A stretch of DNA of 64,000 nt, taken from positions 386 to 64,385 of the forward strand of contig VGPT01000005.1 in NCBI GenBank assembly GCA_016882485.1. The letters are read 5' to 3'. Source of the stretch: Cyanobacteria bacterium M_surface_10_m1_298 (GTDB taxonomy: Bacteria; Cyanobacteriota; Cyanobacteriia; PCC-6307; Cyanobiaceae). The number at the start of each line of letters is the position of its first letter. Position 1 is the stretch's first letter. Position numbers and translations under genes: made by a program. The notes under the pieces were generated by a model. That model saw only the letters and a list, made by a program, of their open reading frames with translations. It ran no database searches and was not told the origin of the DNA. Positions 5,347 to 43,236 of the stretch are shown here, piece by piece.

Positions 5347-7368
5347 ATGGGTTTTGGTGGACTCCCGAGCTTCGCCCACACCAGCGGCGCCAGGCCATCG
5401 GGGTCGAGCCCCGCCCCCACCATCATCAAGCCGAGCCTCGCCCCCACCATCCTTCCTTCCCGGCCCGGCAGCGGTCCGATCTCAGGGGGCGGCTATTCAG
5501 GCTCTGGCTACTCCGGTGGCGGCTACTCCGGTGGTCCCATCTCCGGCGGCGGTTACTCCGGTGGTCCCATCTCCGGCGGCGGTTACTCCGGTGGTCCCAT
5601 CTCCGGCGGCGGTTACTCCGGTGGTCCCATCTCCGGCGGCGGTTACTCCGGTGGTCCCATCTCCGGCGGCGGTTACTCAGGCTCTGGCTACACCGGCAGC
5701 GGCTATGGCGTACTCACCGTGGCCAGCGGACCGCCTGAGCTGCTGGAGGCCACCAGCAACGGCGATCTGATCACCCTCTCATTTGACAGTGAGCTCGGGG
5801 CCAGCAACCCCTCCAGCAGCCGATTCGCCGTCACCTCCGGCGGCAAAGCCGTGCCCGTAGTGAGCACCGCTGTGAACGCCGCGGACGGCCTGGTGAAGAT
5901 CACCCTGGCCCGCGCCCTCACCCCCAAAGACACCTCCGTGGCGGTGAGCTACACCGACCTCAAAAACGACCAGACCAGTGGCGTGATTGAAGGCGTTGAT
6001 GGCAGTGATCTCGCCAGCTTCAAGAATTTCACGGTGATTCCCCAAACCGAGGATTCCAGCGCTCCGGTGGTGAGCAGCGCCGCCGTGGATGGCGCCCTGC
6101 TCACCCTGCAATTTGACGAAGCCCTCGGCGGCGGGTCACTGCCCTCCGCCAGCAGCTTCACCGTGACGGTGAATGGCCGCCCGGCGTCCGTGGCCAGCGT
6201 GAGTGCTGAGGCGGATGCCGGTCTGGTGACCCTGAAGCTGGCCAAAGCGGTGCAATTCGACCAAACGGTCGAACTCGCCTACCGGGACCTCTCCGGCGAC
6301 CAGACCAGCAAGGTGATCCAAGACGAGGCCGGCAACGACCTGGCCACCTTCAGCAAGCTGGCGGTGGTGAACAACACCTTTGACCCCACCCCGCTCGACG
6401 TCAACCTGGTAGAGGTGGACGGCGACACCGTCACGGTGAGCTTCGACAAGAACATCAAGGCCACGGTGCCCTCGGCCAGCAGCTTCCGCATCGAAGCCAA
6501 CGGCAAGGTCTTGAAAGTGACCCGCGCAGCCACCTTCCCAGACGACAGGCAGGTGGTGCTCACCCTGGCCAGTGCCGTGGAGAGCGACGACAGCGTCACC
6601 TTCAGCTACATCGACGCCGCCGGCGACCAAAGCAAAGGTGCCGTGGAGGATCTCCAGGGCAACGACCTGGTGTCGATCACCAAGCGGCCGGTGAAGAACA
6701 TCACCCCAGACTTGAATCCCCTCAGCCTGGAATCCGCCCAGGCCGATGGTAATGCCATCGCGCTCACCTTCAGCAAACCCCTGGCCACCACCCTTCCCAC
6801 CCCCAGTCGCTTCACGCTGCTTGCGGACGGCAAGAAATTGAACGTCAAGAGCATCTCCAGCACCCCCGCAGACGGGGTCGTCACCCTCAATCTGGCCAAG
6901 GCCATTCCCCTGGGGGTGACGGTGCAGCTCGACTACAGCGACCAAACGGGCGACCAGAACCGCGGTGTGATCGAAGATCTGGCCGGCAACGACCTGGCCA
7001 GCATTAAGAAGTTCAGCGTCACCAACTTTGTGCTCGATGAGGAGGCCCCCAACCTCATCGACGCCACCGTGGACGGCAAGGAACTGGTGCTGTTCTTCGA
7101 TGAGGTGATCAACCCCGGCAAGGTGCTCACGTCCGCCTTCCGCGTGGAAGTGGGCGGCAAACGGGCCAAGATCAGCGGCAGCAGCGTCAGCGTGGACAAA
7201 GACAGCACAGAGGTGGTGTTGATGCTGAACGCCGCCGCCGCCCCCAATGCCCAGGTGGAGGTGAGCTACACCGACTCCAAGGGTGATCAATTGGATGGGG
7301 TGATCCAGGATCTGGCCGGCAACGACCTCGAAAGCCTGCGTCGTTTCTCAGTCGAAAACATCGCCTGA
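5347..7368 (+). CDS. SwmB-domain protein A: Gly/Tyr/Ser repeat head + 5 SwmB-type domains
   Basis: Five ~110-aa repeats (P.l..a.vdG..l.L.F...L....P....F.v...G.......v.L.La.......vsY.D..gDQ..GVIqD.aGNDl.sf), matching the cyanobacterial long-protein repeat (TIGR02059/PF13753 type). No signal peptide. Confidence 0.85.
   Translation: MGFGGLPSFAHTSGARPSGSSPAPTIIKPSLAPTILPSRPGSGPISGGGYSGSGYSGGGYSGGPISGGGYSGGPISGGGYSGGPISGGGYSGGPISGGGYSGGPISGGGYSGSGYTGSGYGVLTVASGPPELLEATSNGDLITLSFDSELGASNPSSSRFAVTSGGKAVPVVSTAVNAADGLVKITLARALTPKDTSVAVSYTDLKNDQTSGVIEGVDGSDLASFKNFTVIPQTEDSSAPVVSSAAVDGALLTLQFDEALGGGSLPSASSFTVTVNGRPASVASVSAEADAGLVTLKLAKAVQFDQTVELAYRDLSGDQTSKVIQDEAGNDLATFSKLAVVNNTFDPTPLDVNLVEVDGDTVTVSFDKNIKATVPSASSFRIEANGKVLKVTRAATFPDDRQVVLTLASAVESDDSVTFSYIDAAGDQSKGAVEDLQGNDLVSITKRPVKNITPDLNPLSLESAQADGNAIALTFSKPLATTLPTPSRFTLLADGKKLNVKSISSTPADGVVTLNLAKAIPLGVTVQLDYSDQTGDQNRGVIEDLAGNDLASIKKFSVTNFVLDEEAPNLIDATVDGKELVLFFDEVINPGKVLTSAFRVEVGGKRAKISGSSVSVDKDSTEVVLMLNAAAAPNAQVEVSYTDSKGDQLDGVIQDLAGNDLESLRRFSVENIA
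5524..5678 (+). repeat. 30-bp coding tandem repeat, 5 near-perfect copies (GGPISGGGYS)
   Basis: Unit ggtggtcccatctccggcggcggttactcc repeated head to tail, flanked by degenerate GSGYS/GGGYS units. Confidence 0.95.
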
Positions 7369-8400: not shown

Positions 8401-8458
8401 GGCGGCTTGCCGATTGCGTCCGTCGCCCCGACCGTACAACTGACCACCCGGCCCCGCC

Positions 8459-10372
8459 GTGACCCCCACGCCGATGCCCCCCCCGGCCCAGGTGCGCGTG
8501 GGGGTTTCCATTTACCGCCAGCCCCTGGCCTACGTGCAGCGCTGCCTGGAGAGTGCCCTGGGGCAGATCGACTGCCCTGTGGAGCTGGCCATCCGCATCG
8601 ATGGCCCGGAGAACTGCAGTGCGGATTTGGAGCGCTATTTGCAGACCCTGCAGGCCAGCCACCCCAACGTGACGCTGCTGGACGACCGTGAACACCGCGG
8701 CACCTTCGGCTCCTACCGGGAGCTGTTCAACGGCTGCCGGACACCCTTTTTGGCCCAGCTCGATGGTGACGACTACCTCAGCCCGCTGGCGCTGAGCACT
8801 TGCCTCGCTGCGCTGGAGCCGAGGCCCGACGCCAGTTTTGCATACACCAACTGCCTGGACATTGCCGCCGACGGCACAGTGCTGCAGCTGGGCCAACGGC
8901 AGAAAACGCCGTACAGCTACAGGATGATGCTGGTGCGGTTCATGGCCTTCCACCTGCGGGTGGTGCGTACCGCCAGCTATGAGGCCGTCGGCGGCTACCG
9001 GCCCGACCTGCTCTACAGCGGCGACTACGACCTCGCCCTCAAGCTGGCTGAGCAAGGGGAGGTGCTGTTTGTGCAGGATCCCCTCTACTACTACCGACTG
9101 CACGGTGAGAACACCTCCACACTGCAGCACCAGGCCACCCACCGGGAAGCCTTTGTGGTGGCCCAGGACGCCCTGCAACGATCCGGGCTCGATCGCGCCT
9201 ACCGACTGCTGTTTAATCCAGGCACCCATCAGGTTCACCTGCTCCCCCGGGCCGCCGGTCCACCCACCTGCCTGGCGATCGCCGGCATGCACCGCTCCGG
9301 CACCTCCCTCCTGGCCCAACTGATCCAAGCCGGCACCACGGCCCACCTCGGGGAGCAGCTGCTGGCGGCGGACGACAACAACCGCCAGGGCTATGTGGAA
9401 GACCTGGACTTTGTGAACTGGCATCGCGCCTGCCTCGCCCAGGCCGAGACCAGCGCCGAGCCCGCGGCCGGCACCCACTGGCTGGAGGGGGGCTGGCTGG
9501 GGGATCGGCTGGTGGAGGGGCAACCGCCATTGCGGTTGCGCCAACGGGCCCACGGACTGATCGATCGGCGCCGTCAGCAGGGGCGCCTCTGGGGCTGGAA
9601 GGATCCCCGCACCACGCTGTACCTGCATTTCTGGGCGGAACGCATCCCCCAGCTGCACTATCTGTTCAGCTATCGCAGCCCCTGGGAGTGCTGCCTGTCG
9701 CTGGCCCGTTTCGGCCACGCCAGCCTGCAGGCCGACCCGGACGTCTGCGCGGCCATCTGGGGGGCCTACAACCGCCGCCTCCTGGATTACATGCAGGACC
9801 ACCACGACAGTTGTCTGCTGCTCAACTGTGATGCCCTGGCCAGCGAGCCCGGCCGGCTCTCCGAGCTGCTGGCGATGCACTGGCAGCTGCCCGAGCCAGA
9901 CGGCAGGGCCGTCAAGACCCCCGTGCGGCCGGAGTTGCTGCACCCCAGCTCGGGCCACGGGCTGCGGCTCTGGCAGGTGCTGCTGCCGGAAAGCTGTGCC
10001 CTCTGGCGGGAGCTGCAGGCCGCATCCCACCTGCCGATGACGGAGCGGACCGAACCAGCCTCCATCCCAGCGCTGCCCCCGGGAACCGCGCCGCTGCAGC
10101 TGGTGCTCACCCTGGGGCGCTCACGACTCACTCTCGCCGCCGCCCTGGCCATGTGGTTCGATCAGGCCCACGGGGACGACAGCCTGCTGATCCACGACCC
10201 CCTGGAGAGCCTGGACCCGCCCACCCGTGCAGCCCTGCTGCAGCTCGACACCCGTCTGGGTTGGCTCCCGGCCGGGACAGCCCCTCCCCCTGGGGCCATC
10301 CACTGGGGAAGCGACATGGTGCTGACCAGCAAGGACCCTATGCTGCTGCGTGAGTCCCAGGCCCGACCCTGA
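8459..10372 (+). CDS. GT2 glycosyltransferase - sulfotransferase fusion
   Basis: GT-A domain with QLDGDDYL (DxD) and SGDYDL. Second domain has IAGMHRSGTSLL and WGWKDPRT, typical sulfotransferase motifs. Confidence 0.85.
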   Translation: MTPTPMPPPAQVRVGVSIYRQPLAYVQRCLESALGQIDCPVELAIRIDGPENCSADLERYLQTLQASHPNVTLLDDREHRGTFGSYRELFNGCRTPFLAQLDGDDYLSPLALSTCLAALEPRPDASFAYTNCLDIAADGTVLQLGQRQKTPYSYRMMLVRFMAFHLRVVRTASYEAVGGYRPDLLYSGDYDLALKLAEQGEVLFVQDPLYYYRLHGENTSTLQHQATHREAFVVAQDALQRSGLDRAYRLLFNPGTHQVHLLPRAAGPPTCLAIAGMHRSGTSLLAQLIQAGTTAHLGEQLLAADDNNRQGYVEDLDFVNWHRACLAQAETSAEPAAGTHWLEGGWLGDRLVEGQPPLRLRQRAHGLIDRRRQQGRLWGWKDPRTTLYLHFWAERIPQLHYLFSYRSPWECCLSLARFGHASLQADPDVCAAIWGAYNRRLLDYMQDHHDSCLLLNCDALASEPGRLSELLAMHWQLPEPDGRAVKTPVRPELLHPSSGHGLRLWQVLLPESCALWRELQAASHLPMTERTEPASIPALPPGTAPLQLVLTLGRSRLTLAAALAMWFDQAHGDDSLLIHDPLESLDPPTRAALLQLDTRLGWLPAGTAPPPGAIHWGSDMVLTSKDPMLLRESQARP

Positions 10373-11253: not shown

Positions 11254-11343
11254 GTTCTGCAATTTCTATGGATATTTTGGCGGTGCGCGCCGGCTGAATT
11301 AAAGTGCCCTTTGGACCGAGCTTAGTCTAAGGTTCTCAGAATT

Positions 11344-13065
11344 ATGTCTCACTCTTCTCTCACCACGCCTCACCCCTCCCTGACCACGCTGCTTGGTGAC
11401 CTGATCACCATGCAGTTTGATGCTGAACTCGCCAATTCTGCCCCCAGCACAGCCCGCTTCCGGGTCACCGTCAATGGGGTTGTGACCAGTGTGATTGCCG
11501 CCAGCGTCTCGAGCGGCGAAGGCCTGGCCTTCCTCACCCTGGCCTCCGCGCCGGCCCCCGGCGCCTCCGTGTCGGTGACCTACACCGACCTCATCGGAGA
11601 TCAGAGCTCCGGGGTGCTGCAGCTGGCGGATGGCAGCGACATCGCCAGCTTCACCCAGGCGATCACCAATGACTCCGCGGACGCCGTCGCGCCACAACTG
11701 GATGCCGCCAATGTGGATGGCAACCGGCTCACCCTCAGCTTCAACGAGAGCCTGGGCAGCGGCCTGCCTAGGAATTCGGCCTTCAGCGTGCTGGTGAATG
11801 CCCGGCCCGTGGCCGTCTCCGCCGTTGAGGTGATCGGAGGCCAGGCGGTGCTGACCCTCGCCAAGGCGGTGGCCTTCGGCGACGACGTCACCATCGGCTA
11901 CAAGGACCTCTCGGGCGACCAGCCCTCGGGCGTGCTGGAGGACACCAGCGGCAACGACCTGGCCACCTTCGCCAACGAAGTGGTGGTCAACGACACCGTC
12001 GACGCCACCCCGCTGGCCTTCGCGGCCGCCACGGTGAACGGCGACACCCTCGAGATCACCTTCGACCGGGACATCGCCGACGTGGTGCCCTCGGCGCGCA
12101 CCTTCCGCGTTGAGGCCAATGGTCGCGTGATCAACGCCACCCGGGCCGAAGTGTTCCCGGACGACCGCCAGGTGGTGCTCACCCTGGCCACCCCGGTGAC
12201 CAACAAGGAAACCGTGGTGGTGTCCTACATCGATCCCGCGGGCGACCAGCGCAGCGGCGTTGTGGAGGATGTGCAGGGCAATGACCTGATCAGCTTCACC
12301 AAAAAACCGGTGAAGAACGACACGGTCGACCTCAACCCCATCAGCCTGGACACCGCTGAAGTGGTGGGTGGCAAGCAACTGGTGCTGACCTTCAGCAAGG
12401 AGCTGGGCACCTCCGAGCCCTCCGCCGCCCGTTTCAAGGTGCTGGCCAATGGCAAGCTGCAGGCCATCAGCTCAATTGAGACCAGCCCAGATGACGGGCA
12501 GGTGATCCTCAATCTGCGCAACAGCATCCCGTCCGGGGTGAAGGTGGCCCTTGATTACAGCGACCAAGCCGGCGACCAGAGCTTCGGCGTGGTGGAAGAC
12601 GCCACCGGCAAAGACCTAGCCACCGTTAAATCCTTCTCGGTGACCAACTTCATCGAAGACGCCACCCCGCCTGAGCTGGTGGATGCCGAGGTGGACGGCC
12701 GCACGGTCACCCTCTACTTCGATAAGGAGCTGGACAACTCCCGCCCCAATGCCAGCGCCTTCACCGTGACCGCCGGGCGCCAGCGCTTCAAGGTGCGCTC
12801 CGCCAGCATCGCCGCCGGCGATACCGTGGCCGAGCTCCAGCTGCAAAGTGCCGTGCCCGCCGGAGTCGACGTGGTGATCTCCTACAAGGATCCCAAAAAC
12901 GACCAGGCCAAAGGCGTGGTGCAGGATCTGGCCGGAAACGACCTGGAAAGCATCCGTGATTTCCCTGTGGCCAACATGAACGACGGCGCCAGCAAGCGCC
13001 TGTTCAACGGTACTGACCTGGGGGCCGCCGCCTCCGTGGCCGAACTCATCGCCTGCAGCTGCTGA
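11344..13065 (+). CDS. SwmB-domain protein B: headless, 5 SwmB-type domains + Cys-ending tail
   Basis: Module 1 starts within ~10 aa of Met. Five repeats follow, then the tail DGASKRLFNGTDLGAAASVAELIACSC. Confidence 0.85.
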   Translation: MSHSSLTTPHPSLTTLLGDLITMQFDAELANSAPSTARFRVTVNGVVTSVIAASVSSGEGLAFLTLASAPAPGASVSVTYTDLIGDQSSGVLQLADGSDIASFTQAITNDSADAVAPQLDAANVDGNRLTLSFNESLGSGLPRNSAFSVLVNARPVAVSAVEVIGGQAVLTLAKAVAFGDDVTIGYKDLSGDQPSGVLEDTSGNDLATFANEVVVNDTVDATPLAFAAATVNGDTLEITFDRDIADVVPSARTFRVEANGRVINATRAEVFPDDRQVVLTLATPVTNKETVVVSYIDPAGDQRSGVVEDVQGNDLISFTKKPVKNDTVDLNPISLDTAEVVGGKQLVLTFSKELGTSEPSAARFKVLANGKLQAISSIETSPDDGQVILNLRNSIPSGVKVALDYSDQAGDQSFGVVEDATGKDLATVKSFSVTNFIEDATPPELVDAEVDGRTVTLYFDKELDNSRPNASAFTVTAGRQRFKVRSASIAAGDTVAELQLQSAVPAGVDVVISYKDPKNDQAKGVVQDLAGNDLESIRDFPVANMNDGASKRLFNGTDLGAAASVAELIACSC

Positions 13066-13099
13066 TCTGACCCCCCGGATCCCAGTCCTCTAGTACCCC

Positions 13100-13133
13100 G
13101 CGGGGGCATCAACGGTGTTGATGCCCCCGCTTT
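13100..13133 (+). terminator. Stem-loop (perfect 14-bp stem, 3-nt loop, short T run)
   Basis: GCGGGGGCATCAAC-ggt-GTTGATGCCCCCGC-ttt, located between genes B and C. Confidence 0.6.
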
Positions 13134-13149
13134 CGCACTTCACACACCC

Positions 13150-15870
13150 ATGCCATTCACAATTTCAGGTTTCAAATACGACGACCAGGACGCCAATGGC
13201 TTCCGTGCCACAAGCCTGATCAAAGGCAAAGACCCTGATGTGGTGTTGGTGCTGGATGTCTCCGGCAGCACCTACTTTCCCTTTGTGGGCAGCTCACCTG
13301 TTGGCGATCTCAACAGCGACTACATGCCCAACACGGTGTTGGACGCTGAGATCGCCGCGGCCCAAAGCTTCCACTCCAGCCTGCTCAACCAGGGATTCGG
13401 CAGCGCCAACCTGGCTCTGGTGAGCTTCTCCGATGGCGCCAGCACCGAGTTCAACGGCACCGCCAGCACCTCCACAAGCAGCGGCTACGACTTCTACAAC
13501 AGGGTGGCTGGTCTGCAGCTCCAAGGCGGCACCAACTACTCGGCAGGCCTGAGCACGGCCCTCTCGGTGCTGCGGGGCTGGGGATCCACCGATGGCAACG
13601 TCATCTTTCTGTCCGATGGCGAACCCAACTGGGGCCAGGACGGCACCTCAGAATTCGCCGCCCTCAAGGCAGCCGGCTACAACGTGCAGGCCTTCGGCGT
13701 GGGCACTGGTGCGCGCAAATCGCCCCTGAGCGCGATCGACAGCGACGGCACCGCCTACATCTTCACCACCCCTGAGGAGGTGCGTGATGTGCTCTCCGGC
13801 AAGCTGGGCGGCTCGATCGGCGCCACCCAGTACACCGAACCCGGCCTGGCTGGCGTTGAGATCTACGTGGATCTGAACGGCAACGGCAGCTTCGACAGCG
13901 GCGAGCCCAGCACCACCAGCGGCAGCGACGGCTCCTACACCATCACCACCTCCGCGTTGAGCGTGGGGCAGAGCTATGCGGTGAAGGAGAAGGTGCCCAG
14001 TGGTTACCTGCAGACCCAGGCTCCAAACACCCTGGTGGTGACGGCCGCGAACCAGACCTTCAAGGATGTCAACTTCGGCAACACGGTGGACAAGAACCCG
14101 CCGCCGGTGCCCCTGCCCCCTACCGCCAACCCCCTGGCTGTGTTGTCGGCCTTTGTGGTGGACGACCTGATCACCCTTCAGTTCGACCAAGAGGTGCGCA
14201 ACAGCAACCCCAGCACAGCCCGCTTCCGGGTGGTGGTGGGTGACGGCCCTGCGCGCGTGGTGTCCAGCTCCGTCTCCAGCAGCGATGGGCAGGTGTTGCT
14301 CACCCTGGACAAGCCCGTGGTGTTTGGGGAATCGGTCACCGTCAGTTACACCGACATGCTCGGCGATCAGACCTTCGGGGTGATCGAAAGCGTGGACGGC
14401 GTCGACCTGGCCAACCTCAATGACCTGCCGGTCGAGAACCGCTCCCAGGACAGCAAGGCCCCTGAGGTGGTGGATCTCAGCGTTGACGGCAAGACCCTCA
14501 CCCTGACGCTGAATGAAAGCCTCGGCGCCGAAGTGGCCCCCGCCAGCGCCTTCACGGTGCGCAGCAACGGGCGCACCATCAGCGTGAGCGAGGTCAAGAG
14601 CGCTCCCGACAGCGGCCTGGTGAGTCTCGTGCTCAGCAGTGCGGTGGCCTTCGGTGATGACGTTCAACTCTCCTACAAGGACCTCGCAGGTGACCAAGCC
14701 ACCAAGGTGCTGCAGGACAAGGCCGGCAATGACCTGGCCACCTTCAGCAATGCCACCGTGGTGAACAACACCTTCGAGACCACGCCGCTGGCCTTCGCCA
14801 ATGCCACCGTCGACGGTGACACCCTGGAGATCACCTTCGACCGGGACATTGCCGCCACCCTGCCCTCCGCCAAAACCTTCCGGGTCGAAGCCGATGGCAA
14901 GGTGATCAACGTGAACCGCGTTGCGGTATTCCCCAGCGATCGTCAGGCGGTGCTCACCCTGGGATCGGCGGTCACCAACAAGCAGTCGGTTGTGGTGTCC
15001 TACATCGACCCCGCCGGCGATCAACGCACTGGTGTGGTGGAAGATGTTCAGGGCAACGACCTGATCAGCTTCACCAAGAAACCGGTGAAGAATGACACCG
15101 TCGATGCCAACCCGCTCACCCTCGACAGCGCTGAGGTGCTGGGGGGCAACAAGCTGGTGGTCACCCTCAGCAAGGAGCTGGGGAGCAGCGTGCCGAGCAG
15201 CGCCCGCTTCAAGGTGCTGGCGAACAACAAGCTGCAAGCGATCAGCTCGATTCAGACGAGCCCGAACGACGGCACGGTGACCCTCAACCTACGCAGCAGC
15301 ATCCCCGCCGGGGCTTCTGTGCTACTTGACTACACCGACCAGCTGGGCGACCAGGTGAGCGGCGTGATCGAGGACAACTCCGGCAAGGATCTCGCGAGCG
15401 TGAAGGGGTTCAAAGTCAACAACTTTGTGCTCGATGAAGAGGCGCCCACCCTTGTGGATGCCGAGGCGGAGGGCAACCTGTTGACCCTCTACTTCGATGA
15501 GGAGCTCAGCGGTGGCCGGGTCAACGCCAGTGCCTTCTCGATCAAAGCCGGGGGCAAGCGCTTGCGTGCCCGCTCGGTGAAAGTGCTGGAGGGCGACACC
15601 GTGGCTGAACTGACCCTGAGTGGCTCCGTGGCAGCGGGAACCGATGTGCTCATCTCGTACACCGACCCCCGCAATGACCAGGCCACTGGGGTGATTCAAG
15701 ATCTGGCCGGTAACGACCTGGGGTCGCTGAGGGATTTTGATGTTGTCAACCTCACCTCAGGCCCCAGCAAGCGCCTGATCAGCCTGGGCAGCAGCGAGAT
15801 CAGCGGCGGCCGCCCCAAGAGCGCCCTTGAGGAGCTCTATGCCGGCGCCTGCACCTCGATCGCGATCTGA
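13150..15870 (+). CDS. SwmB-domain protein C: vWA domain inside an SdrD-B/Cna-B-like domain + 5 SwmB-type domains
   Basis: MIDAS elements DVSGS, GGTNY and FLSDG. SdrD-B-like halves TISGFKYDDQDANG and EPGLAGVEIYVDLNGNGSFDSGEP...YAVKEKVPSGYLQTQAP...DVNFGN. Five repeats, then a tail ending ELYAGACTSIAI. Confidence 0.85.
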   Translation: MPFTISGFKYDDQDANGFRATSLIKGKDPDVVLVLDVSGSTYFPFVGSSPVGDLNSDYMPNTVLDAEIAAAQSFHSSLLNQGFGSANLALVSFSDGASTEFNGTASTSTSSGYDFYNRVAGLQLQGGTNYSAGLSTALSVLRGWGSTDGNVIFLSDGEPNWGQDGTSEFAALKAAGYNVQAFGVGTGARKSPLSAIDSDGTAYIFTTPEEVRDVLSGKLGGSIGATQYTEPGLAGVEIYVDLNGNGSFDSGEPSTTSGSDGSYTITTSALSVGQSYAVKEKVPSGYLQTQAPNTLVVTAANQTFKDVNFGNTVDKNPPPVPLPPTANPLAVLSAFVVDDLITLQFDQEVRNSNPSTARFRVVVGDGPARVVSSSVSSSDGQVLLTLDKPVVFGESVTVSYTDMLGDQTFGVIESVDGVDLANLNDLPVENRSQDSKAPEVVDLSVDGKTLTLTLNESLGAEVAPASAFTVRSNGRTISVSEVKSAPDSGLVSLVLSSAVAFGDDVQLSYKDLAGDQATKVLQDKAGNDLATFSNATVVNNTFETTPLAFANATVDGDTLEITFDRDIAATLPSAKTFRVEADGKVINVNRVAVFPSDRQAVLTLGSAVTNKQSVVVSYIDPAGDQRTGVVEDVQGNDLISFTKKPVKNDTVDANPLTLDSAEVLGGNKLVVTLSKELGSSVPSSARFKVLANNKLQAISSIQTSPNDGTVTLNLRSSIPAGASVLLDYTDQLGDQVSGVIEDNSGKDLASVKGFKVNNFVLDEEAPTLVDAEAEGNLLTLYFDEELSGGRVNASAFSIKAGGKRLRARSVKVLEGDTVAELTLSGSVAAGTDVLISYTDPRNDQATGVIQDLAGNDLGSLRDFDVVNLTSGPSKRLISLGSSEISGGRPKSALEELYAGACTSIAI

Positions 15871-15878
15871 GGCCACAG

Positions 15879-15953: not shown

Positions 15954-16949
15954 ATGAGCTTCATCACCCTCACCAAATCCGGTTGGGTTGATGACATGGG
16001 GCTCCAGAGGGGCCGCTGGACCACAGAGGCCGACCTGCTCTCTGAACGCAAGAGCCTGCTGGAGGTGCAGCGCAGCGATCGGATCAACGCCGGCAACGGA
16101 GATGACCAGTTGATCGGCAAAGGATTGCAGGTGATGGGCAGTCTCAGCACCGGCGCCGGCAACGACCTGCTCAACACCTCTTTCCGTGGCAACGGCGATG
16201 ACAGCCTGTGGCTCACTGGCAAGCTGGACCTCGGGGATGGTGACGACACCCTGACGGCCCTGCGGTTGGGGCTCAGCAAACGCTCCTCAGGCGCCTACGG
16301 CATCAATTCCAGTGGCTCACTGTTCACCGGCGCAGGCCGCGACAGTGTCGAAAGCACCGAGGTGCTGATCAGCGCAGGCAGCATCAACCTCGGCGATGGC
16401 GATGACCAGTTCAAGGCAACCGGCTTGTTCTGCAATAGCCGCGGCCTATTTCTGGCGGGTGCCGGGAATGACCAGCTCCATGTGGTGCACCTGGATCATT
16501 CCGGCACCATCTCCATGGGTGATGGTGATGACCTGATCCGGGCTAGCCGCGGCACCAACACCAAGGCCCGCTACAAGGGCATCAACAACAACGGCGTGGT
16601 CAACACAGGCGCCGGAAACGACGAAGTGGATTCCCTGGACGGCGGATTCCGCGGTGCTGGTCGCTGGATCCTGGGGGACGGTGATGACCTGATCCGGGGC
16701 TTCGGGGGCGGCCAATTCGAAGGGGGCCTCGGGACAGACCGGCTCCTGCTCGGAGCGGGCACATACACCATCACCGCATCGGCCGTGCCAGAACGGTTTC
16801 AGTTGCGGGCCATGGGGGGCCGCGAAGCGATGGGCCTGCTGGAGTTCGAAGAGATCGGCAGCGCACTCCAGCCCAATGAACGACTCCCCCTCAAAGCCGG
16901 CAGCCTGGTGGTGGGGAACGCGGGGGAACTGAGCTTCACCCCCATCTGA
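15954..16949 (+). CDS. Small RTX/hemolysin-type calcium-binding protein
   Basis: About 10 degenerate G-x-G-x-D-x-(L/I/V) repeats (GNGDDQL, GAGNDLL, GDGDDTL, GAGRDSV, GDGDDQF, GAGNDQL, GDGDDLI, GAGNDEV, GDGDDLI, GLGTDRL). No recognisable catalytic domain. Confidence 0.8.
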   Translation: MSFITLTKSGWVDDMGLQRGRWTTEADLLSERKSLLEVQRSDRINAGNGDDQLIGKGLQVMGSLSTGAGNDLLNTSFRGNGDDSLWLTGKLDLGDGDDTLTALRLGLSKRSSGAYGINSSGSLFTGAGRDSVESTEVLISAGSINLGDGDDQFKATGLFCNSRGLFLAGAGNDQLHVVHLDHSGTISMGDGDDLIRASRGTNTKARYKGINNNGVVNTGAGNDEVDSLDGGFRGAGRWILGDGDDLIRGFGGGQFEGGLGTDRLLLGAGTYTITASAVPERFQLRAMGGREAMGLLEFEEIGSALQPNERLPLKAGSLVVGNAGELSFTPI

Positions 16950-16984
16950 ACCGCGATACGCGCGAGCGTTTAGACCCAGACTTC

Positions 16985-17002
16985 TGTGATATTGTGTCAC
17001 AA
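16985..17002. promoter_or_regulatory. Candidate operator (overlapping palindromes TGTGA-N7-TCACA and TTGTG-T-CACAA)
   Basis: Sequence tgtgatattgtgtcacaa in an AT-rich intergenic patch ~135 bp upstream of ATG 17134. Confidence 0.3.
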
Positions 17003-17133
17003 CTTTGTATCGAACCGGACCCCTCGGTTGGATCCAAACCCTTGCAATCTCTGATCGCCCGGTGGTAGCCCCCCGGCGAAGGGAGCAAACACGGGCCTGG
17101 ATCCAAAAACCATCGGGCCGCTCTAAAGACCCC

Positions 17134-19857: not shown

Positions 19858-19868
19858 GGAACATCACC

Positions 19869-30480: not shown

Positions 30481-31284
30481 TCATGAACCTGCAACTATGC
30501 GTTGCAGCCTAGAGGGAATCTGTTCCTCAACCCACTCCTGAAACAGTTCCTGAGCGAGCTGTAACTGCAGATCCTCGTCGAGGGTGGCTGGGGTATAGGA
30601 CTCCAGTCGGACCACCAACCACCAATCGGAGATGCGGATCGGTTGACGCAACTGTCCCGGACGCGATGTGCGCAACAATTCCGCAAGGGCGGGGTGCGCC
30701 TGCAACAGCGGCACTGGGCCCACCACACCGTTGGTGGCCCGCTCCGGTCCCAGGGCATAGGTGGCGGCTAAGTCCGCGAAGGAGGCCTCTCCCTCAGCGA
30801 TACGGAGATACAGCTCGCGGGCCAAATGCGCCTCCTTCACGCGAAGCAGGCTGTAGATCACCCGATCCAGGCGGGTCTTGCGCTCCAGAAAACGGGTTTC
30901 CGCCTTCGGGAGGTAGTGCTCACGGCAATGGCGCTCAATCCTCAAGGGCAGCTCGGCCTGCCAAACGGGGTCATCGGGCTGCAGGCCATGGCTGAGCGCA
31001 TGGCGCTGGATGGCTTCAGGCTCGGGTTCAAGCTCCCGGGCTTCACACCACTCGAGCAGAGCTTGCTTCTGCTCATCCTCTGTGAGCGCAATCGATGCAA
31101 CGGCCTCAGCGATGACCAACTGGCGCAAGTAGGCATCCAGCAAGCCATGGCGGGCCAAATCGCTCGCTGCAATGCCAATCCGCGGGTTGGCGGTCAGCGG
31201 CGGGGCGTTTCGCGGGCGCAGAGTGATGGGTGGAGTGGCGCTGAGCTCAATATCCAAGGAACGGGCTTCTGGGTCTGCGGACAT
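30481..31284 (-). CDS. Parvulin/PpiC-type peptidyl-prolyl isomerase associated with the T1SS
   Basis: RVIYSLLRV...ELYLRIAEGEASFADLA..Y..GPE....G..GPV...HPALAE; first gene of the cyanobacterial PPIase-ABC-MFP operon. Confidence 0.85.
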   Translation of the reverse strand: MSADPEARSLDIELSATPPITLRPRNAPPLTANPRIGIAASDLARHGLLDAYLRQLVIAEAVASIALTEDEQKQALLEWCEARELEPEPEAIQRHALSHGLQPDDPVWQAELPLRIERHCREHYLPKAETRFLERKTRLDRVIYSLLRVKEAHLARELYLRIAEGEASFADLAATYALGPERATNGVVGPVPLLQAHPALAELLRTSRPGQLRQPIRISDWWLVVRLESYTPATLDEDLQLQLAQELFQEWVEEQIPSRLQRIVAGS

Positions 31285-31372
31285 TCATGGAGGCTCCTGG
31301 TGGACCTCCATCGGCATCGCCCCGACTCTAAGGTCAACTGGCATCGGTCCTGCAATCAGGGAACCTTCTGCC

Positions 31373-32845
31373 ATGGGTCAGGCCTCCACACTCCGCCTTG
31401 CTGAGCTGACCGGTGCGCTGGCGCACAGCCTGGACGGCTCCAACAGCTTCCGCTGGAACTATCCCCATGTGATGGGGTTGTCTCCAACCTCCACGGCCGG
31501 GCTAGGGAGTGGCGTGACCCTCACCTATAGCTTTCTGGAGCAGGCCCCGCCAGACCGGCCGGCTGTTCCGGGTTTCACACCCTTCCCTCAATCTTACCGC
31601 AGTGCCACAAGGGCCGTTCTAGAGCAGCTCAGCCGCATCGCCCAGGTGACCTTTGTGGAAATCGAGGGCAACCGGGGGCAATTGCGGTACGGACTCCACC
31701 CACAACCGACGGCGGCTGGTTATGCCTCGCCGGCCAGTTATCGCGTGAGCACGCAGGCGGGCCTGGTGATCAACCTGGAGGAAATGGCTGAGGGCGGGGA
31801 TGTCTGGCTGAACAGCAACGTGAGCTATGACACCCCTGCGTTGAAGGCGGGCGGCAAGGGCTTTCAAACCCTTCTGCATGAAACCCTCCACAGCCTTGGG
31901 CTGAAGCACCCCTTTGAAGGAACGCAGCTCTTGGAGCCAGTCGATGACCACTGGCTCACCACGGTGATGAGCTACACCCCTCCGGAGGACAACAAACGCA
32001 TCCAGGTCAGTGGCGACCCCGTCACGGGATGGTCCTGGACGCTGGAGGAGCTCAGCATGGGGACGCCGATGCTGGGGGACATCGCGGCCCTCCAGGCCCT
32101 TTATGGGCCCAACCGCAGCACCGGTGCAGGCAACAGCACCTACCGCTGGGAACTGGATGCCATTCGCCGCGAAACCCTCTGGGATGGCAGCGGCAAAGAC
32201 ACCATCGACGCCTCAAACCAGACCGAACCCTGCCGGATCGATCTGCGGGAGGGCAGCCTGAGCTCTATCGGTGTCCGTACCGACCCGGCGGCCATCGCAG
32301 CGCTGCATCGGGTGCCCGCCAATTTCCCGTTGGAGCACCTACCCACCGGGCTGTACACAGGCACCAACAACCTCAGCATTGCCTTCGGCTGCCTGATTGA
32401 ACAGGCCAACGGCGGACTGGCTGATGATGTCTTGATCGGAAATGCCTTAGGCAACAACCTCAGCGGGGGGCCAGGGGCAGATACCCTAACCGGCGGGGCG
32501 GGCAAGGACAGCTTTGTGCTCAAGCGCCTCAGCGACTCCCTGATCTCCGCCCCGGATCGGATCACCGACTACGGGAGCGGCGACCGGATTGATGCACCCG
32601 GGGGACAGCGGCGACCAGATGGGGGCCAATGGTCCAAGCCAGTGGAACTGAAGCAGCTGAATGCCACCACCCTGGCGGGTATGGCGCTGGCCCCGAATGG
32701 CCTGCGAGCCTTCAAGCTGGCAGGGAAAGACAGTGTTTACCTGCTGATCGGCGATCAGAAGCCTGGTTTTCAACCGGACAGGGACGCGGTGGTGGAACTT
32801 TCCGGGCTCGCGGACAGCGCCATCGGTGGGATTCAAGTGATTTGA
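31373..32845 (+). CDS. Serralysin-like M10B metalloprotease
   Basis: HETLHSLGLKH zinc motif, Met-turn TVMSY, DIAALQALYG, WDGSGKDTID, GGPGADTLTGGAGKD. ATG at 31373 preferred over 31172. Confidence 0.9.
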   Translation: MGQASTLRLAELTGALAHSLDGSNSFRWNYPHVMGLSPTSTAGLGSGVTLTYSFLEQAPPDRPAVPGFTPFPQSYRSATRAVLEQLSRIAQVTFVEIEGNRGQLRYGLHPQPTAAGYASPASYRVSTQAGLVINLEEMAEGGDVWLNSNVSYDTPALKAGGKGFQTLLHETLHSLGLKHPFEGTQLLEPVDDHWLTTVMSYTPPEDNKRIQVSGDPVTGWSWTLEELSMGTPMLGDIAALQALYGPNRSTGAGNSTYRWELDAIRRETLWDGSGKDTIDASNQTEPCRIDLREGSLSSIGVRTDPAAIAALHRVPANFPLEHLPTGLYTGTNNLSIAFGCLIEQANGGLADDVLIGNALGNNLSGGPGADTLTGGAGKDSFVLKRLSDSLISAPDRITDYGSGDRIDAPGGQRRPDGGQWSKPVELKQLNATTLAGMALAPNGLRAFKLAGKDSVYLLIGDQKPGFQPDRDAVVELSGLADSAIGGIQVI

Positions 32846-32872
32846 CGGCAGGGCCTGGGGACCCAGCCGGTG

Positions 32873-34027: not shown

Positions 34028-34041
34028 CGACAGGCCGCCTT

Positions 34042-35412: not shown

Positions 35413-35555
35413 GGCTCAAGCGGCCTACGGCCGAACCGTAAGAGACCTCCAAAGTCTAGGGAGGGGTCGCTCAGGCACCATGCTGCCGTGGGCACCAATT
35501 GACTAAGCGCCCACTCACGCAAAGAGGTATCCATGCCTGTGTTTAAGGTCTTTGG

Positions 35556-38497: not shown

Positions 38498-40388
38498 CCG
38501 GAACATCGCTCTGGCATGCCAAGGCGCCCTGATCATCGCAGGGGTTCTTGGGGCGCGCGCTCAAAGCGTCATCTGGGAACCCATCAGCATCCCGCAACGA
38601 TCAACTGCAGGACATCCCGAAGGAGCGCAAACCTGGCAATCGATTGAACCGGAGGGGTCGCGACGCCAGGCACCCGTGTGGGTTCCTTTAGTCGATGGGG
38701 CCAAGATTGGGAATGAGCCTCTGCCGCAAACCAAGGGTGGATCGCCACAGGAGCCGCCTACTGAGATGGCGGAGGCGGAGGCGATCCTGCAAAGTTTGAA
38801 ACCCAGCGCCGCTGAGTACACACGGTTGCTACGGCTAGGGCCAGCCGTTCCAACGGCGAATCAACTGGCCGAACAGCAAGGACAGTTCAGCGCCTACACA
38901 CTGTCGCCATTTAGTGGCGGATCCGCCAATGGCACGGGCAACCAAAACTACGCCGTTCGTGTTGATGGTGGCGTCACTGACGCGCTGCAGATCTCAGGCT
39001 TTTACAGCAATGCCGACGACCCCCTGTTTGCCCGAATCCAAGGTCTCAGCAAACAGCCCGCTAACTTCTGGGAAAGTTATGGAGGTGCGCTGCAGTGGCA
39101 CGTTCACGGCGGTAAGAACTGGGGTGTGGGCCTCTCAGGATCGCTGGAGGGATGGAATGTCGGCAGCGGTGGCTGTTATTCATTCGGCTGCAAAAGTAAC
39201 GCCAGTGCTTCACCTAACATTTTCAACAACTCAGGGCAAAGGGTTTTTACCAAAAACCTGGTGGGCTCGGTCAGCATTCCCCTGACCTGGAATATCGGAC
39301 AACAATGGCAGGCAACGCTGACGCCTGGCGTGAGTTTTCTCCCTCCCAGCCAGGGGGAAGGGCAAGGGGGGGCCGGGACTTTCTACGGTACCAATGGCAC
39401 TATCAGCGGTGGACTCAGCTGGCAACCCAGTAGACACTTGAGCCTCTTTGGCTCAGCCCTGATACCACTGGGACCAGGTGACAACAGCTTTGACAGCAGC
39501 CTGACATTTAGTCGTGTTCCGATTCTTAGCGGTGGCGCCAATTGGGCATTGAATCCAAGAATTGGACTGGAAGGGTTGCTGACCAACGGCTGGGGGGCGA
39601 CACCAGCCACTGCTTTACTGGCGCTCCCCTCAAGCAACCGACTTGGTTATTATGCTCGCTTTGTCTACACACCTGGCGCAGCTGATACACCACAACTAAA
39701 ACTCAGTCCAAGACAGGAGTCGATGGCACTAGGCGGCTTAACAGTCAACACAGCCTTGGTCCCCGAGGATGGCGTCACAGAGCTATGGGCCAATGCAGAC
39801 AGTGGTGGCAACATTTTTGGATTCATTGGCCATTCGATCTCAAACATCTTTCAAGTCGACGTCTTCAAAAGTGGTTGGTTCAATAACATTCCACAAACCA
39901 CGGCACTGGCAGACCGATACACCACGGATGGCGCCTGGCAATGGCGAATCGGCGGCAAGGCCGTTGCCCTTAGTCCCTTAAGGGGCTTTCCACTATGGGC
40001 GGCAGGCCGCATCAGCTTGGGCAGGGAAAATCCACCCGGCAGCGGCCAGGGCTATGTTTTTGCGGAAACGATTAACACCTGGGAAGCGAACCGATGGCTA
40101 GCCTTCCACGTGAATCCGAAACTCGCCTGGTCTGGTGTTGGGGTGCCTTGGGGTTTCGGAATTGGTGCCAATATCCAGCTCGGAGGCAGTTTTCAACTGA
40201 TTCCCGAGGCCAATCTTGTTGCCAGTGAAATCGGGGCGAGCAATGCCACACTCGCCTTGCGATGGCTTGCTAACCATCAGTGCAAAGTTGACGTATACCT
40301 CAGTAACGCAGCCGGCCTGCTGGACATGGGCCAGCTCTTAAGCGCCGACCAGACACGCGTTGGCGGCAGGCTGATCATCAGCTTCTAA
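38487..40388 (+). CDS. Putative outer-membrane beta-barrel protein (possibly YjbH-like)
   Basis: N-terminal hydrophobic segment, many alternating Gly/aromatic strands, C-terminal Phe (LIISF). Lies downstream of the wza/wzc-like genes. Confidence 0.6.
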   Translation: MGRNRNIALACQGALIIAGVLGARAQSVIWEPISIPQRSTAGHPEGAQTWQSIEPEGSRRQAPVWVPLVDGAKIGNEPLPQTKGGSPQEPPTEMAEAEAILQSLKPSAAEYTRLLRLGPAVPTANQLAEQQGQFSAYTLSPFSGGSANGTGNQNYAVRVDGGVTDALQISGFYSNADDPLFARIQGLSKQPANFWESYGGALQWHVHGGKNWGVGLSGSLEGWNVGSGGCYSFGCKSNASASPNIFNNSGQRVFTKNLVGSVSIPLTWNIGQQWQATLTPGVSFLPPSQGEGQGGAGTFYGTNGTISGGLSWQPSRHLSLFGSALIPLGPGDNSFDSSLTFSRVPILSGGANWALNPRIGLEGLLTNGWGATPATALLALPSSNRLGYYARFVYTPGAADTPQLKLSPRQESMALGGLTVNTALVPEDGVTELWANADSGGNIFGFIGHSISNIFQVDVFKSGWFNNIPQTTALADRYTTDGAWQWRIGGKAVALSPLRGFPLWAAGRISLGRENPPGSGQGYVFAETINTWEANRWLAFHVNPKLAWSGVGVPWGFGIGANIQLGGSFQLIPEANLVASEIGASNATLALRWLANHQCKVDVYLSNAAGLLDMGQLLSADQTRVGGRLIISF

Positions 40389-40431
40389 AGCATAAATGAA
40401 GATCTGAAGACAAACCAAGCAGGGACAATGC

Positions 40432-40513
40432 TGAACACATTGTTCATTAACCAATGGCACATAGAGCCCTGGCAAATTTAGCCATGGCGCGCGACTATTA
40501 AAAACCATATAAT
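40432..40513 (+). promoter_or_regulatory. Candidate promoter of gene F: inverted repeat TGAACA-N3-TGTTCA and a -10 box TATAAT
   Basis: tgaacacattgttca at 40432-40446; tataat at 40508-40513, 23 nt before ATG 40537. Confidence 0.35.
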
Positions 40514-40536
40514 GGACAGAAGATCAATCAAGAACC

Positions 40537-43236
40537 ATGTCTGCCACCAAACTGAATAACCCAACCGAAGTATTAATCAGTCGAATCAAATCCGGCATCG
40601 CCTCGAGCCAGGGCGGCGGGGCAGAATCAGGGGATGGTTCGGGCTGGGCATTCGGGAGTAAACCCAGCATTTCATCCTCAAGCTTCACCCCAATACCAGG
40701 TAAAGACCTCCAGATCGACTCTGGAGGTACGCGCGGTCTCAATGGATTCTGGGATGGAGGCTCGGGATCACAGAGCATTGTTGTGAACATGAGCACAACA
40801 CCCATCAACAGCCACGGGCTCATTCCTCCAGGCGTGATGCGGGTACACCCTTCGTACGATGGCCCAGATCTCACATTGCGCTACGTCGCGTCAATCGCAG
40901 GACAATATCAACTGGCTGGGAGATTAACGGATATCGATCCTGGCGGGGGAGATGGTGTTGGCCTGATTGTCACACAAAATAGTCCAACAGGTGGATACCC
41001 TACATATTATCTTGAAAAATATATCGATAATGGTGGTGGTGACACATTTGACATCACCATTCCACTAAATACCGGGGACTATTTTGATGTCAGCGTAGAC
41101 CGAAGGAGTAACTGGACTTATGATAGCACAAATCTGGAATTCACCAATTTTGTAAATCTCGATGCTAATGGAGCTTCTCCAACGCCTCCTGCAAGCCCAA
41201 CACAGAACGGACAGGGACAAACCAATGCCCAGTCTTCTATCAGCCCAATCTCTTATTATAGCTTCAATGATGCAATTTTTACCGAAGGCGGAAACGGCTC
41301 AATTACCGTAACACGTACGGGTGATTTAACGAGTCAGGTAACAATTAACTTCTCCTCTAAAGCGATTTTTAGCACAGCTATTGCAGGGCTCGACTATTTG
41401 CTGCTCGCAAACTCGACAACCTTTAACATTGGCTCAGATACTGCAACCATTCCTTTTTCTGTTGTCGATGACAACAACTACGAAGTCGATGAAACACTGC
41501 AGATTGAGGGCGTTTTAATTACAAGCCAAGGGTCCACAACAGGCAGCCACCAGTGGCTCAAGAATCTGTCAAGCATTCTCATCAAGGACAACGACAAGCA
41601 ACAATTACCAAGCCCAGAAATCAAAAAAGCAAGTATTAAAGACAATATCATCACTCTAGGTTTCAACCTTGAACTGAATACATCTAAGCCAGATCCAAAT
41701 CTCTTCAGTATTTTAGCTGGCAATGAAGCTATTGATGTCACAAAGACATCTATTTCTGCGAGTACTGGTATCATCAATCTTGAACTCAGTCGCGCTGCAA
41801 TTCCTGGGGAGGCCATTAATCTCGTTTATACTGATCTCAGTGGAGACCAAACTGACGGCATCATCGAAGGCAAAGATGGAGCCGATGTAGCTACATTCCA
41901 GCGATTGTTAGACAATGTAAGCCGAGATGAACAACCACCAACACTGGATAATGCTATTGCAAATGGCAGCCTTGTTGAACTGTCTTTCAATGAAGAGTTA
42001 TCACCTCTACTTCCAGCATTATCCCGATTCGGCGTCACTCAAAACAATCTGAAGATACCCGTCAAATCCGCATTGATTGATGCCACTAACGGCCAATTAC
42101 AACTGATTTTATCTAAACCTCTAGCACCTCGCATTCCAGTCCTGCTAAGTTACACTGATATAGCTGGCAATCAAACTATTGGCGTTATTCAAGACAGATT
42201 TGGCAATGATTTACAGAGCTTTAGCGGTCAACCTGTAGACAATCAAAGCGTCATCTCGCAATCACCCCTAAAACTGGATTCGGCTGAAGCTGATGGCAAC
42301 TCAGTAATGCTGAACTTTGATCGAGAGCTTGATTCTGCGATACCATCGACGCGATTCTTTGCAATATCAGTGAACGGTAAGCCAGCTAAAATCGTAAAAG
42401 CTAATACAGTCGTAGCAGATCGACAAGTTGTTCTTACACTCGACAAGCCTGTCTATGGGGCAGACAAATTGACAGTCAGTTATTCTGACGCCAAAGGAGA
42501 CCAAGCAACAGGCATTATTCAAGATGCTGAAGGCAACGATCTTGAATCATTTATCCAAGTACCGATCAAGAATAATACGCTTAAGCAAAATACTCTTGTT
42601 ATCCAATCAAGCGAGATAGCAGGTAAGATACTTCGTCTTGTGATGTCAGAGCCAATTGCAAGCACTTCAATCTCCAGCTCAAGATTCAAAATCATCGCCA
42701 ATGGAAAGAAGCAGGCTATTACTTCGATCCAAACAACCCCTCAAGATGGTGTTATTGACATCAACCTACAGAACATTGTTGAAACAGGATCCAACGTCAA
42801 GCTTGAGTACTCCGATTCGGACGGTGATCAAGCAGCTGGGGTCGTACAAGATAGTGATGGCAATGACCTCGGTAGCGTCAAGAATCTTGCAATTACGAAC
42901 TTCAGCACAGATGACAATGCGCCTATACTAATAGACGCTTTCATCGAGGGGAACGACCTTACGTTATTATTTGACGAATTAATTGCAGGCGGATCAATAA
43001 CGAATTCAAGATTTGTTGTTAAAGCCGATGGGAAACGTGTCAAAGTCTCCTCTGCACGGAGTGTTGAAGCCGACTCTACTGTTTTGCTATCTTTAGCTGC
43101 CATGCCCTCGGACTTCAGCTCAGCCTCCATCTCCTATGTAGACCCCCGCGGCAACCAAAGCACAGGAGTGATTCAAGACATCCTGGGTAACGATTTGGCA
43201 TCATTGCGCGATTTTGCAGTTGACATCATCAACTAA
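40537..43236 (+). CDS. SwmB-domain protein F: lectin-like beta-sandwich + Calx-beta + 5 SwmB-type domains (AT-richer gene)
   Basis: Head contains VHPS...TLRYVA..AG.Y.L.G...GGGDGV...GDYFD...YDST. Calx-beta FTEGGNGSITVTRTGD...TAIAGLDY...VVDDNNYEVDETL. Five SwmB repeats ending VIQDILGNDLASLRDFAVDIIN. Confidence 0.85.
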   Translation: MSATKLNNPTEVLISRIKSGIASSQGGGAESGDGSGWAFGSKPSISSSSFTPIPGKDLQIDSGGTRGLNGFWDGGSGSQSIVVNMSTTPINSHGLIPPGVMRVHPSYDGPDLTLRYVASIAGQYQLAGRLTDIDPGGGDGVGLIVTQNSPTGGYPTYYLEKYIDNGGGDTFDITIPLNTGDYFDVSVDRRSNWTYDSTNLEFTNFVNLDANGASPTPPASPTQNGQGQTNAQSSISPISYYSFNDAIFTEGGNGSITVTRTGDLTSQVTINFSSKAIFSTAIAGLDYLLLANSTTFNIGSDTATIPFSVVDDNNYEVDETLQIEGVLITSQGSTTGSHQWLKNLSSILIKDNDKQQLPSPEIKKASIKDNIITLGFNLELNTSKPDPNLFSILAGNEAIDVTKTSISASTGIINLELSRAAIPGEAINLVYTDLSGDQTDGIIEGKDGADVATFQRLLDNVSRDEQPPTLDNAIANGSLVELSFNEELSPLLPALSRFGVTQNNLKIPVKSALIDATNGQLQLILSKPLAPRIPVLLSYTDIAGNQTIGVIQDRFGNDLQSFSGQPVDNQSVISQSPLKLDSAEADGNSVMLNFDRELDSAIPSTRFFAISVNGKPAKIVKANTVVADRQVVLTLDKPVYGADKLTVSYSDAKGDQATGIIQDAEGNDLESFIQVPIKNNTLKQNTLVIQSSEIAGKILRLVMSEPIASTSISSSRFKIIANGKKQAITSIQTTPQDGVIDINLQNIVETGSNVKLEYSDSDGDQAAGVVQDSDGNDLGSVKNLAITNFSTDDNAPILIDAFIEGNDLTLLFDELIAGGSITNSRFVVKADGKRVKVSSARSVEADSTVLLSLAAMPSDFSSASISYVDPRGNQSTGVIQDILGNDLASLRDFAVDIIN

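Follow-up and report, generated by a model that had tools for sequence, protein, structure and literature searches.

An ordered five-module SWM-repeat cassette beneath interchangeable N-terminal heads in a lake picocyanobacterium

The DNA window analysed here is a stretch of 64,000 nucleotides (nt) from Cyanobacteria bacterium M_surface_10_m1_298 (assembly GCA_016882485.1). It covers positions 386–64385 of contig C5 (VGPT01000005.1), in a genome of 1.99 Mb that is assembled in 145 contigs and has a guanine-plus-cytosine (GC) content of 64%. On its plus strand lie six intact open reading frames (ORFs), termed g1 to g6, that bear modules of the SWM_repeat (PF13753) or swm_rep_I (TIGR02059) type. 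Each encodes a variable N-terminal region or head, which is absent in one case, followed by five modules in a fixed order, termed the cassette. This pentamer behaves as one inherited unit beneath interchangeable heads. The sequence of the window recurs near-verbatim in at least 20 lake-water metagenome runs, and two metagenome runs contain contigs of 11 kb and 7 kb that are co-linear with g1–g3 and g4–g5 and are covered to depths of 150x and 52x. An assembly artefact can therefore be rejected as the source of the gene order.

All six proteins score well above the cut-offs of both domain models, with 152–219 bits against PF13753 (cut-off 27) and 82–142 bits against TIGR02059 (cut-off 40.1). Pfam delimits five SWM_repeat stretches in five of the proteins, and four above threshold in the remaining one. 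An initial annotation of this DNA, made from the sequence alone, had counted 30 modules, five per gene. A six-frame scan of the whole genome gives the same result, namely exactly 30 module matches, five in each of g1 to g6 and zero elsewhere.

The encoded proteins are 573–1403 amino acids (aa) long. The first gene, g1 (5347–7368, +), has a Gly/Tyr-rich low-complexity head with a variable number tandem repeat of 30 bp, followed by the cassette at aa 125–673 (nt 5719–7365), and it stops right after module 5 (...RRFSVENIA). The tandem repeat lies at window positions 5443–5735 in seven in-register copies that encode GGPISGGGYS units, and metagenome contigs break at about 5286–5668, which suggests length polymorphism. 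The second gene, g2 (11344–13065, +), is headless; its cassette occupies aa 4–546 (nt 11353–12981) and is followed by a 27-aa tail (nt 12982–13062). In g3 (13150–15870, +), a vWA and prealbumin-like head precedes the cassette at aa 324–869 (nt 14119–15756), and a 37-aa tail follows. The product of g4 (17134–19857, +; alternative TTG start at 17005) consists of an unassigned N-terminal region, two AIR9/ZirU-like immunoglobulin-like (Ig) repeats, and the cassette at aa 357–901 (nt 18202–19836). Upstream of g4, window positions 16925–17112 are polymorphic in lake metagenomes, in which alternative 188-nt contigs with 12 differences occur and assemblies break. The longest gene, g5 (19869–24080, +), encodes an unassigned N-terminal domain and seven AIR9/ZirU-like Ig repeats before the cassette at aa 858–1403 (nt 22440–24077), and ends ...LVDAII. 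Finally, g6 (40537–43236, +) has an unassigned head with a Calx-beta domain, and its cassette at aa 355–899 (nt 41599–43233) ends ...AVDIIN.

Several details of the initial annotation need adjustment here. Its vWA and Calx-beta labels are supported by Pfam, whereas its “Big_5”, “discoidin-like” and “lectin-like” labels are not. The heads had been called unrelated, but those of g4 and g5 share the AIR9/ZirU-like Ig repeats (2 and 7 copies, 27–36% identity), and the statement holds for the other heads in the window. Likewise, all six genes had been described as ending in the modules, but g2 and g3 extend beyond module 5 with their tails.

The evidence for a common unit comes from the modules themselves. 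They recur every 109 aa or so, and all 30 align nearly gap-free. In a maximum likelihood tree built with IQ-TREE, the copies at positions 1, 3, 4 and 5 are each monophyletic, with support ranging from 78/88 to 99/93, and at position 2 five of the six copies form a clade. Mapped on this tree, the position label requires 4 changes, the minimum possible, compared to a mean of 18.7 for shuffled labels (none of 200 shuffles was as low), while the gene label requires 25. The modules cluster by position rather than by gene, and the pentamer has therefore been copied as a unit. The initial annotation had proposed such a unit with exchangeable heads, to be judged by exactly this tree, and had named clustering by gene as the outcome that would contradict it; the proposal stands, and it extends to relatives with other head types. 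The position signatures that it listed are also present in the alignment: G.D in module 1, DRQ in module 3 (five of six), RF plus (T/S)P.DG in module 4 (five of six), and VI(Q/E)D..GNDL.S(L/I)R in module 5. Conservation is strong in modules 3 and 5 and at the extreme C-terminus.

The limits of the family were established with a profile of the six cassettes, which gave 6,825 matches among 1.84 billion cluster representatives. One hidden Markov model (HMM) was made per position, and every module was labelled in the best 150 of the 6,825 matches plus earlier matches. The “12345 cassette” family is defined here by five SWM modules, located at the C-terminus or close to it, whose best position-specific HMMs follow the order 1-2-3-4-5. 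Among the labelled proteins, this ordered pattern occurs in the six window proteins and in P0004, P0057, P0066, P0083, P0087, P0088 and P0101. It is also found in G017_1051, and with an ambiguous module 1 in P0073, P0098 and a protein of Synechococcus sp. AG-683-C23; P0102 is a fragment with the ordered pattern. The additional members, about a dozen, come from picocyanobacterial genomes and lake metagenomes. In full members 0–37 residues follow the cassette, and the five distinct modules keep their order down to about 35% identity. Giant SWM proteins differ from this arrangement. Their arrays of 2 to about 48 copies mostly read 2222... (“position-2-like”), and within the labelled matches no 12345 super-repeat occurs inside them, the only patterns being 2222..., 2323..., 2121... 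and 5555.... The 12345 pattern thus marks a small, discrete family.

Its distribution is correspondingly narrow. Among the species representatives of GTDB, the full cassette is limited to this genome, to G017 (one of 36 same-genus genomes) and to Synechococcus sp. AG-683-C23, the latter two with a single full-cassette gene each in the scans run. Partial cassettes are found in Cyanobium NAT70, in Synechococcus CPC35 and on a 2.6-kb contig binned as Coxiellaceae. The heads of the relatives include two C-type lectin domains with two Ig domains, an SBBP-type propeller, a right-handed beta-helix, cadherin repeats and vWA. The vWA head of P0087 is 60% identical to that of g3, and P0066, from another organism, is headless like g2.

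The initial annotation had further described genes that end in exactly five modules, which is too strict as a rule for the relatives. G017_496 is an M10 metalloprotease that ends in a single module 5; the protein of NAT70 has modules 4–5 and a 204-aa tail; the “UBA9148” protein combines vWA with three modules, the last of type 5; P0110 reads 2345 followed by 180 aa; and P0141 and P0146 have four modules each. In all of these shortened forms (1–4 modules), loss has occurred from the N-terminal side and module 5 is kept. In addition, L046b has a full ordered cassette at its N-terminus with 830 aa behind it, which places it outside the family as defined by location.

Two classes of C-terminal end can be distinguished. 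Tail-less members share the extreme end ...GNDL.SLR(D/N)F.(V/I)(E/D)(I/V)(I/L), that is, (E/D) and then hydrophobic residues. The second class, consisting of g2, g3, P0004, P0066, P0087, P0088 and P0101, carries a tail of 26–37 aa, and the 27-aa tail of g2 is disordered by AlphaFold prediction. Cysteines near the ends of g2 (..ACSC) and g3 (..GACTSIAI) were considered as a lipidation or sorting signal, and this idea was dropped, as they are absent from P0066 and P0087. Among homologues of the G017 protease, most end ...RLTIVDA, and a few carry instead a “GFQP..DAI..L.N...ITII” domain, of the kind that also terminates the sulfatase-RTX and RTX31172 proteins of the window. One enzyme family can thus carry either module 5 or this RTX-type terminal domain as its C-terminal appendage. 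In its broader form, GFQP..DA(I/V)(I/V).L.N....I(T/Q)(F/V/I)I, the domain ends the RTX proteins at 24090–26222 and 31172–32845 and those designated P0242–P0245 of other picocyanobacteria. It is a candidate for a second, distinct class of signal for the type I secretion system (T1SS) in this island.

In a tree of cassettes, paralogues of the same genome group together and shared head types do not: g2 falls with g3, and P0066 with P0087 and L046b. The heads of g3 and P0087 are 60% identical, compared to 30–52% for their cassette modules, while g2 and g3 reach 79% in module 3 and 69% in module 4. P0087 and its neighbour L046b share only 32% identity in module 1 but 97–100% in modules 2–5. At the DNA level, this similarity corresponds to a stretch of 1322 bp with 99.4% identity between the two adjacent cassette genes on lake metagenome contig L046 (1885–3206 and 4088–5409), which includes modules 2–5 and not module 1. 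This block reflects either very recent gene conversion or assembly collapse. The block identity of P0087 and L046b indicates that cassettes are exchanged between paralogues as blocks. Recent gene conversion within the window was also considered and rejected, since DNA identity between its cassettes is only 60–80%; exchange there is therefore old.

The composition of g6 is foreign, with a GC content at third codon positions of 0.38 compared to 0.76–0.85 in the other five genes. Window positions 40000–44400, which hold g6 and its flanks, have about 47% GC. This low GC content points to recent horizontal acquisition of the g6 region. The cassette nearest to that of g6 is P0057, from a lake contig of 52% GC. 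No transfer RNA or integrase gene was found in the window, while an integrase or resolvase gene adjoins the cassette genes of G017, AG-683-C23 and L048. The cassette would spread as a whole, through gene duplication, exchange of blocks among paralogues and transfer between organisms. Between species, the heads seem to be the conserved part, judging by the one pair compared, while within a genome it is the cassettes that are alike, and this makes the family a clear, testable case of concerted evolution.

The genes are embedded in an island with a mosaic GC content of 47–68%. An HlyD-family membrane fusion protein, the putative T1SS partner, is encoded at 26253–27428 (−), next to an HlyB-type T1SS permease/ATPase of the ATP-binding cassette (ABC) type at 27433–30423 (−). 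The latter has a C39-like domain and an extra N-terminal cyclic-nucleotide (cNMP)-binding domain, scores 713.6 bits against TIGR01846, which is below the cut-off of 725.55, and is a candidate exporter. It sits in a stretch of 52–55% GC, and a 46–48% identical paralogue with its own HlyD partner is found on contig C27. Three TolC-like genes and this second T1SS paralogue lie elsewhere in the genome. A sulfatase with an RTX region (24090–26222, +), which starts 10 nt after g5 and ends in the C-terminal domain “GFQP..DAI..L.N...ITFI”, belongs to the second class of T1SS cargo in the island; at least three RTX-repeat proteins are present (the sulfatase, an M10 protease and RTX31172). A SwmA-like repeat protein (2–1969, −) with degenerate beta-roll (GG.G.D-type) repeats runs off the contig end and may, judging by its sequence, be an S-layer partner. 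This SwmA- or oscillin-like protein has at least 784 aa, repeats of about 20 aa and no Pfam hit. Other genes encode a fused GT2 glycosyltransferase and sulfotransferase (8459–10372, +), an FKBP protein with a single RTX-like motif, a PPIC-type isomerase, glycosyltransferases, Wza and Wzz. Sulfotransferases lie near cassette genes both in the window (8459–10372) and in G017 (contig L013, 7976–9763 and 14166–14870); together with the secreted-type sulfatase of the window, they hint at a link to a sulfated surface glycan. As a whole, the gene content fits surface biogenesis and T1SS export.

The composition of the proteins has the traits that are general among T1SS substrates: they are acidic, poor in cysteine and without an N-terminal Sec/Tat signal by heuristic criteria. 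The isoelectric points of the six proteins are 4.3–4.5, and those of the family are 4.1–4.9 in all but two members. Cysteine makes up 0.07% of residues across 27 family proteins, lectin, vWA and protease heads included, compared to 1.05% in the long ORFs of the genome (about 15-fold lower), and the six cassettes have none. A heuristic hydrophobicity scan found no N-terminal signal-like segment in any member, and the RTX motif G[GNSDA].G.[DN] has no match in the six proteins compared to 2–4 in the RTX proteins of the island, in agreement with the earlier statement that both features are absent. N-terminal double-glycine leaders, as might serve a C39-like ABC transporter, were also looked for, and this reading was dropped because the N-termini share no motif. 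In exoproteomes of Synechococcus, SwmB and a 1159-aa “flagellar-like domain” protein of the same domain type have been detected (PMC4949707).

An AlphaFold2 model of g2, based on an 18-row family alignment, has five confident beta-sandwich Ig-like domains with a mean pLDDT of 86.

Architecture, unit inheritance, family limits, composition and genomic context are observed here, whereas the way in which the proteins are exported, the function of module 5 and their retention at the surface are inferred. The reading that we favour, to which we would give an even chance, is that the six proteins leave the cell without Sec, as exoproteins or surface proteins and probably as T1SS cargo, and that in them module 5 serves targeting and modules 1–4 serve as a stalk or attachment piece. 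In this mechanism, the N-terminal head would vary (in the window vWA, Ig arrays, Calx-beta or a Gly/Tyr tract; in relatives lectins, propellers, a beta-helix or a protease), while the C-terminal carrier would be common to all, with five Ig-like SWM domains that are not equivalent and keep a fixed order. Module 5 would be the indispensable targeting element, with a free end or a short disordered tail, and modules 1–4 would form a fixed-length piece that holds the head at the cell surface. The attachment partner may be a SwmA-like layer or a sulfated glycan made by the island. Export of the T1SS type is favoured indirectly by the isoelectric points, the low cysteine content, the lack of a signal peptide and the HlyB/HlyD pair in the island. 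A C-terminal secretion signal is suggested circumstantially by the conserved free end, by truncations that spare module 5, and by the alternation of module 5 with the RTX-type domain on homologous proteases.

RTX-type T1SS cargo, such as serralysin-family proteases, the sulfatase-RTX and M10-RTX proteins of the island and LapA/BAP-type adhesins, is likewise acidic, poor in cysteine and without a signal peptide, carries its passenger N-terminally and, as in this island, is encoded beside an HlyB/HlyD pair. Unlike that cargo, the window proteins have no GGxGxD nonapeptides, and their C-terminal element is a folded Ig-like domain instead of a beta-roll with an unstructured signal. Nor do they resemble giant adhesins of the LapA/BAP type, as no LapA-type N-terminal retention module is evident, the N-termini are mutually unrelated, one protein is headless and RTX repeats are lacking. 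An organisational parallel is provided by the 3xSLH units of S-layer proteins and the 3xCWB2 units of Clostridioides difficile Cwp proteins, which are fixed multi-repeat anchoring cassettes on many paralogues. In these too, a constant number of non-identical tandem repeats is found as a unit across paralogues with diverse domains; however, the fold is unrelated, and 3xSLH and 3xCWB2 bind polymers of the Gram-positive wall and travel by Sec.

Several observations weigh against the favoured reading. Module 5 is not invariably the terminus, given the 830 aa beyond the cassette in L046b and the 180–204 aa in P0110 and NAT70. The resemblance of the end motif to T1SS signals of the protease type, in the sense of the PrtG literature, is a putative one. 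The C39-like domain of HlyB-type exporters normally engages RTX repeats, which are absent here. At least 10 genomes of the same genus that lack a full cassette have orthologues of the island ABC transporter, at 62–67% identity, and the cassette gene of G017 has no ABC or HlyD gene within 40 kb; the idea that the island T1SS is a dedicated exporter was dropped for these reasons. Finally, the arrangement of the domains relative to each other is uncertain in the AlphaFold model (pTM 0.47), and the “stalk”, like the pentameric shaft or fibre proposed in the initial annotation, is therefore an assumption.

A stronger version of the favoured reading is conceivable, though we consider it doubtful. 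The cassette would then be an RTX-independent module for export and display, with module 5 as a folded-domain T1SS signal and modules 1–4 docking in a layer of SwmA-like protein or sulfated glycan. Any passenger fused to it would be exported and presented, and gene conversion would keep the cassettes within a cell compatible.

The cassette may instead be mainly a self- or co-assembly domain, similar to the “crystallisation” domains that consist of multiple Ig units in S-layer proteins; such an assembly or anchoring role would also have an analogue in the 3xSLH and 3xCWB2 cassettes. After Sec-independent export, g1 to g6 would then co-polymerise into a lattice or fibril, with g2 as the bulk subunit and the headed paralogues as minor, decorated ones. 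This is an unlikely account in our judgement, but several observations fit it. Each of the five non-equivalent domains is conserved at its own position, as would be expected of domains with specific contacts, and a headless form is kept in another organism (P0066). Moreover, the cassettes of same-genome paralogues are more alike than those of same-head relatives elsewhere, which fits mutual compatibility, and the island encodes a SwmA-like protein. Among the best Foldseek matches are S-layer assembly domains, namely those of SbsB, SbsC, Sap and EA1, which are also strings of distinct Ig-like beta-sandwich domains; Chlamydomonas FMG-1B and GhpA are matched as well. However, the TM-scores are only 0.13–0.2, so the likeness consists of a string of several Ig-like domains and nothing beyond that, and no chain in the PDB is similar in sequence to the cassette. 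Variants of 1–4 modules also speak against an assembly role, and the single full-cassette genes in the scans of G017 and AG-683-C23 count against obligate hetero-assembly.

We regard it as similarly improbable that the number five has no special role, the cassette being a spacer inherited by descent in a hypervariable surface island that shuffles heads against phages and grazers. The mosaic GC content of the island, the foreign composition of g6 and the recombinases that adjoin relatives fit such shuffling, and the cassette is missing from 35 of the 36 other same-genus genomes searched. In addition, other module numbers occur. A simple spacer is harder to reconcile with the order of the five distinct modules, which persists to about 35% identity, whereas the spacer arrays of giant SWM proteins, with anything from 2 to about 48 copies, are homogenised. 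The strong conservation of modules 3 and 5 and of the extreme C-terminus, as well as loss from the N-terminal side only, also argues against it.

The relation to SwmB of Synechococcus sp. WH8102, a protein of 10,791 aa, is one of domain type. The giant SWM_repeat proteins share the Ig-like repeat of about 109 aa and are likewise surface or exoproteins of picocyanobacteria. Their arrays nevertheless reach about 48 modules, nearly all position-2-like, and many have hundreds of residues after the array, whereas the window proteins have five specialised, ordered C-terminal modules; with 573–1403 aa, g1 to g6 have neither the giant size nor the long arrays of a SwmB orthologue. That they are “mini-SwmB” parts of a non-flagellar swimming apparatus of the SwmA/SwmB type is very improbable, despite the common domain type and an island that joins a SwmA-like repeat protein, glycosyltransferases and a T1SS (a combination reportedly also seen in the WH8102 motility clusters of McCarren and Brahamsha), because the genome has no giant SwmB and 30 modules in all, the heads are adhesin- or enzyme-like, and the organism comes from lake water, whereas swimming has to our knowledge been reported only from marine clade III Synechococcus.

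Picocyanobacteria belong to the major primary producers, and their fate with phages and grazers, as well as their aggregation, is decided at the cell surface. Beyond SwmA and SwmB, hardly any surface proteins of these organisms are understood. If the favoured reading is correct, a portable C-terminal cassette that carries lectins, vWA domains and proteases would help to predict surface proteomes from sequence, might represent a second, RTX-free class of type I secretion cargo, and could provide a natural scaffold for protein display on cyanobacterial cells. Neither the domain type nor the concept of modular surface proteins is new. The initial annotation knew of no description of this organisation, and the literature search likewise found no paper describing an ordered, position-specialised five-module cassette, its family or its block-wise exchange, which are new in this sense.

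A few further observations concern the window itself. Two metatranscriptome contigs of 151 nt, about 97% identical, map on g2; as evidence of expression they were too weak and have not been used. Downstream of g6, in the low-GC stretch, a 135-aa ORF (43946–44353, +) contains a SET-domain-like motif (...ELTINYDHP...). At 44369–59485 (−) lies a type I polyketide synthase cluster, unrelated to the cassette family, with two multidomain polyketide synthase genes, a Rieske oxygenase, a glycosyltransferase and a P450.

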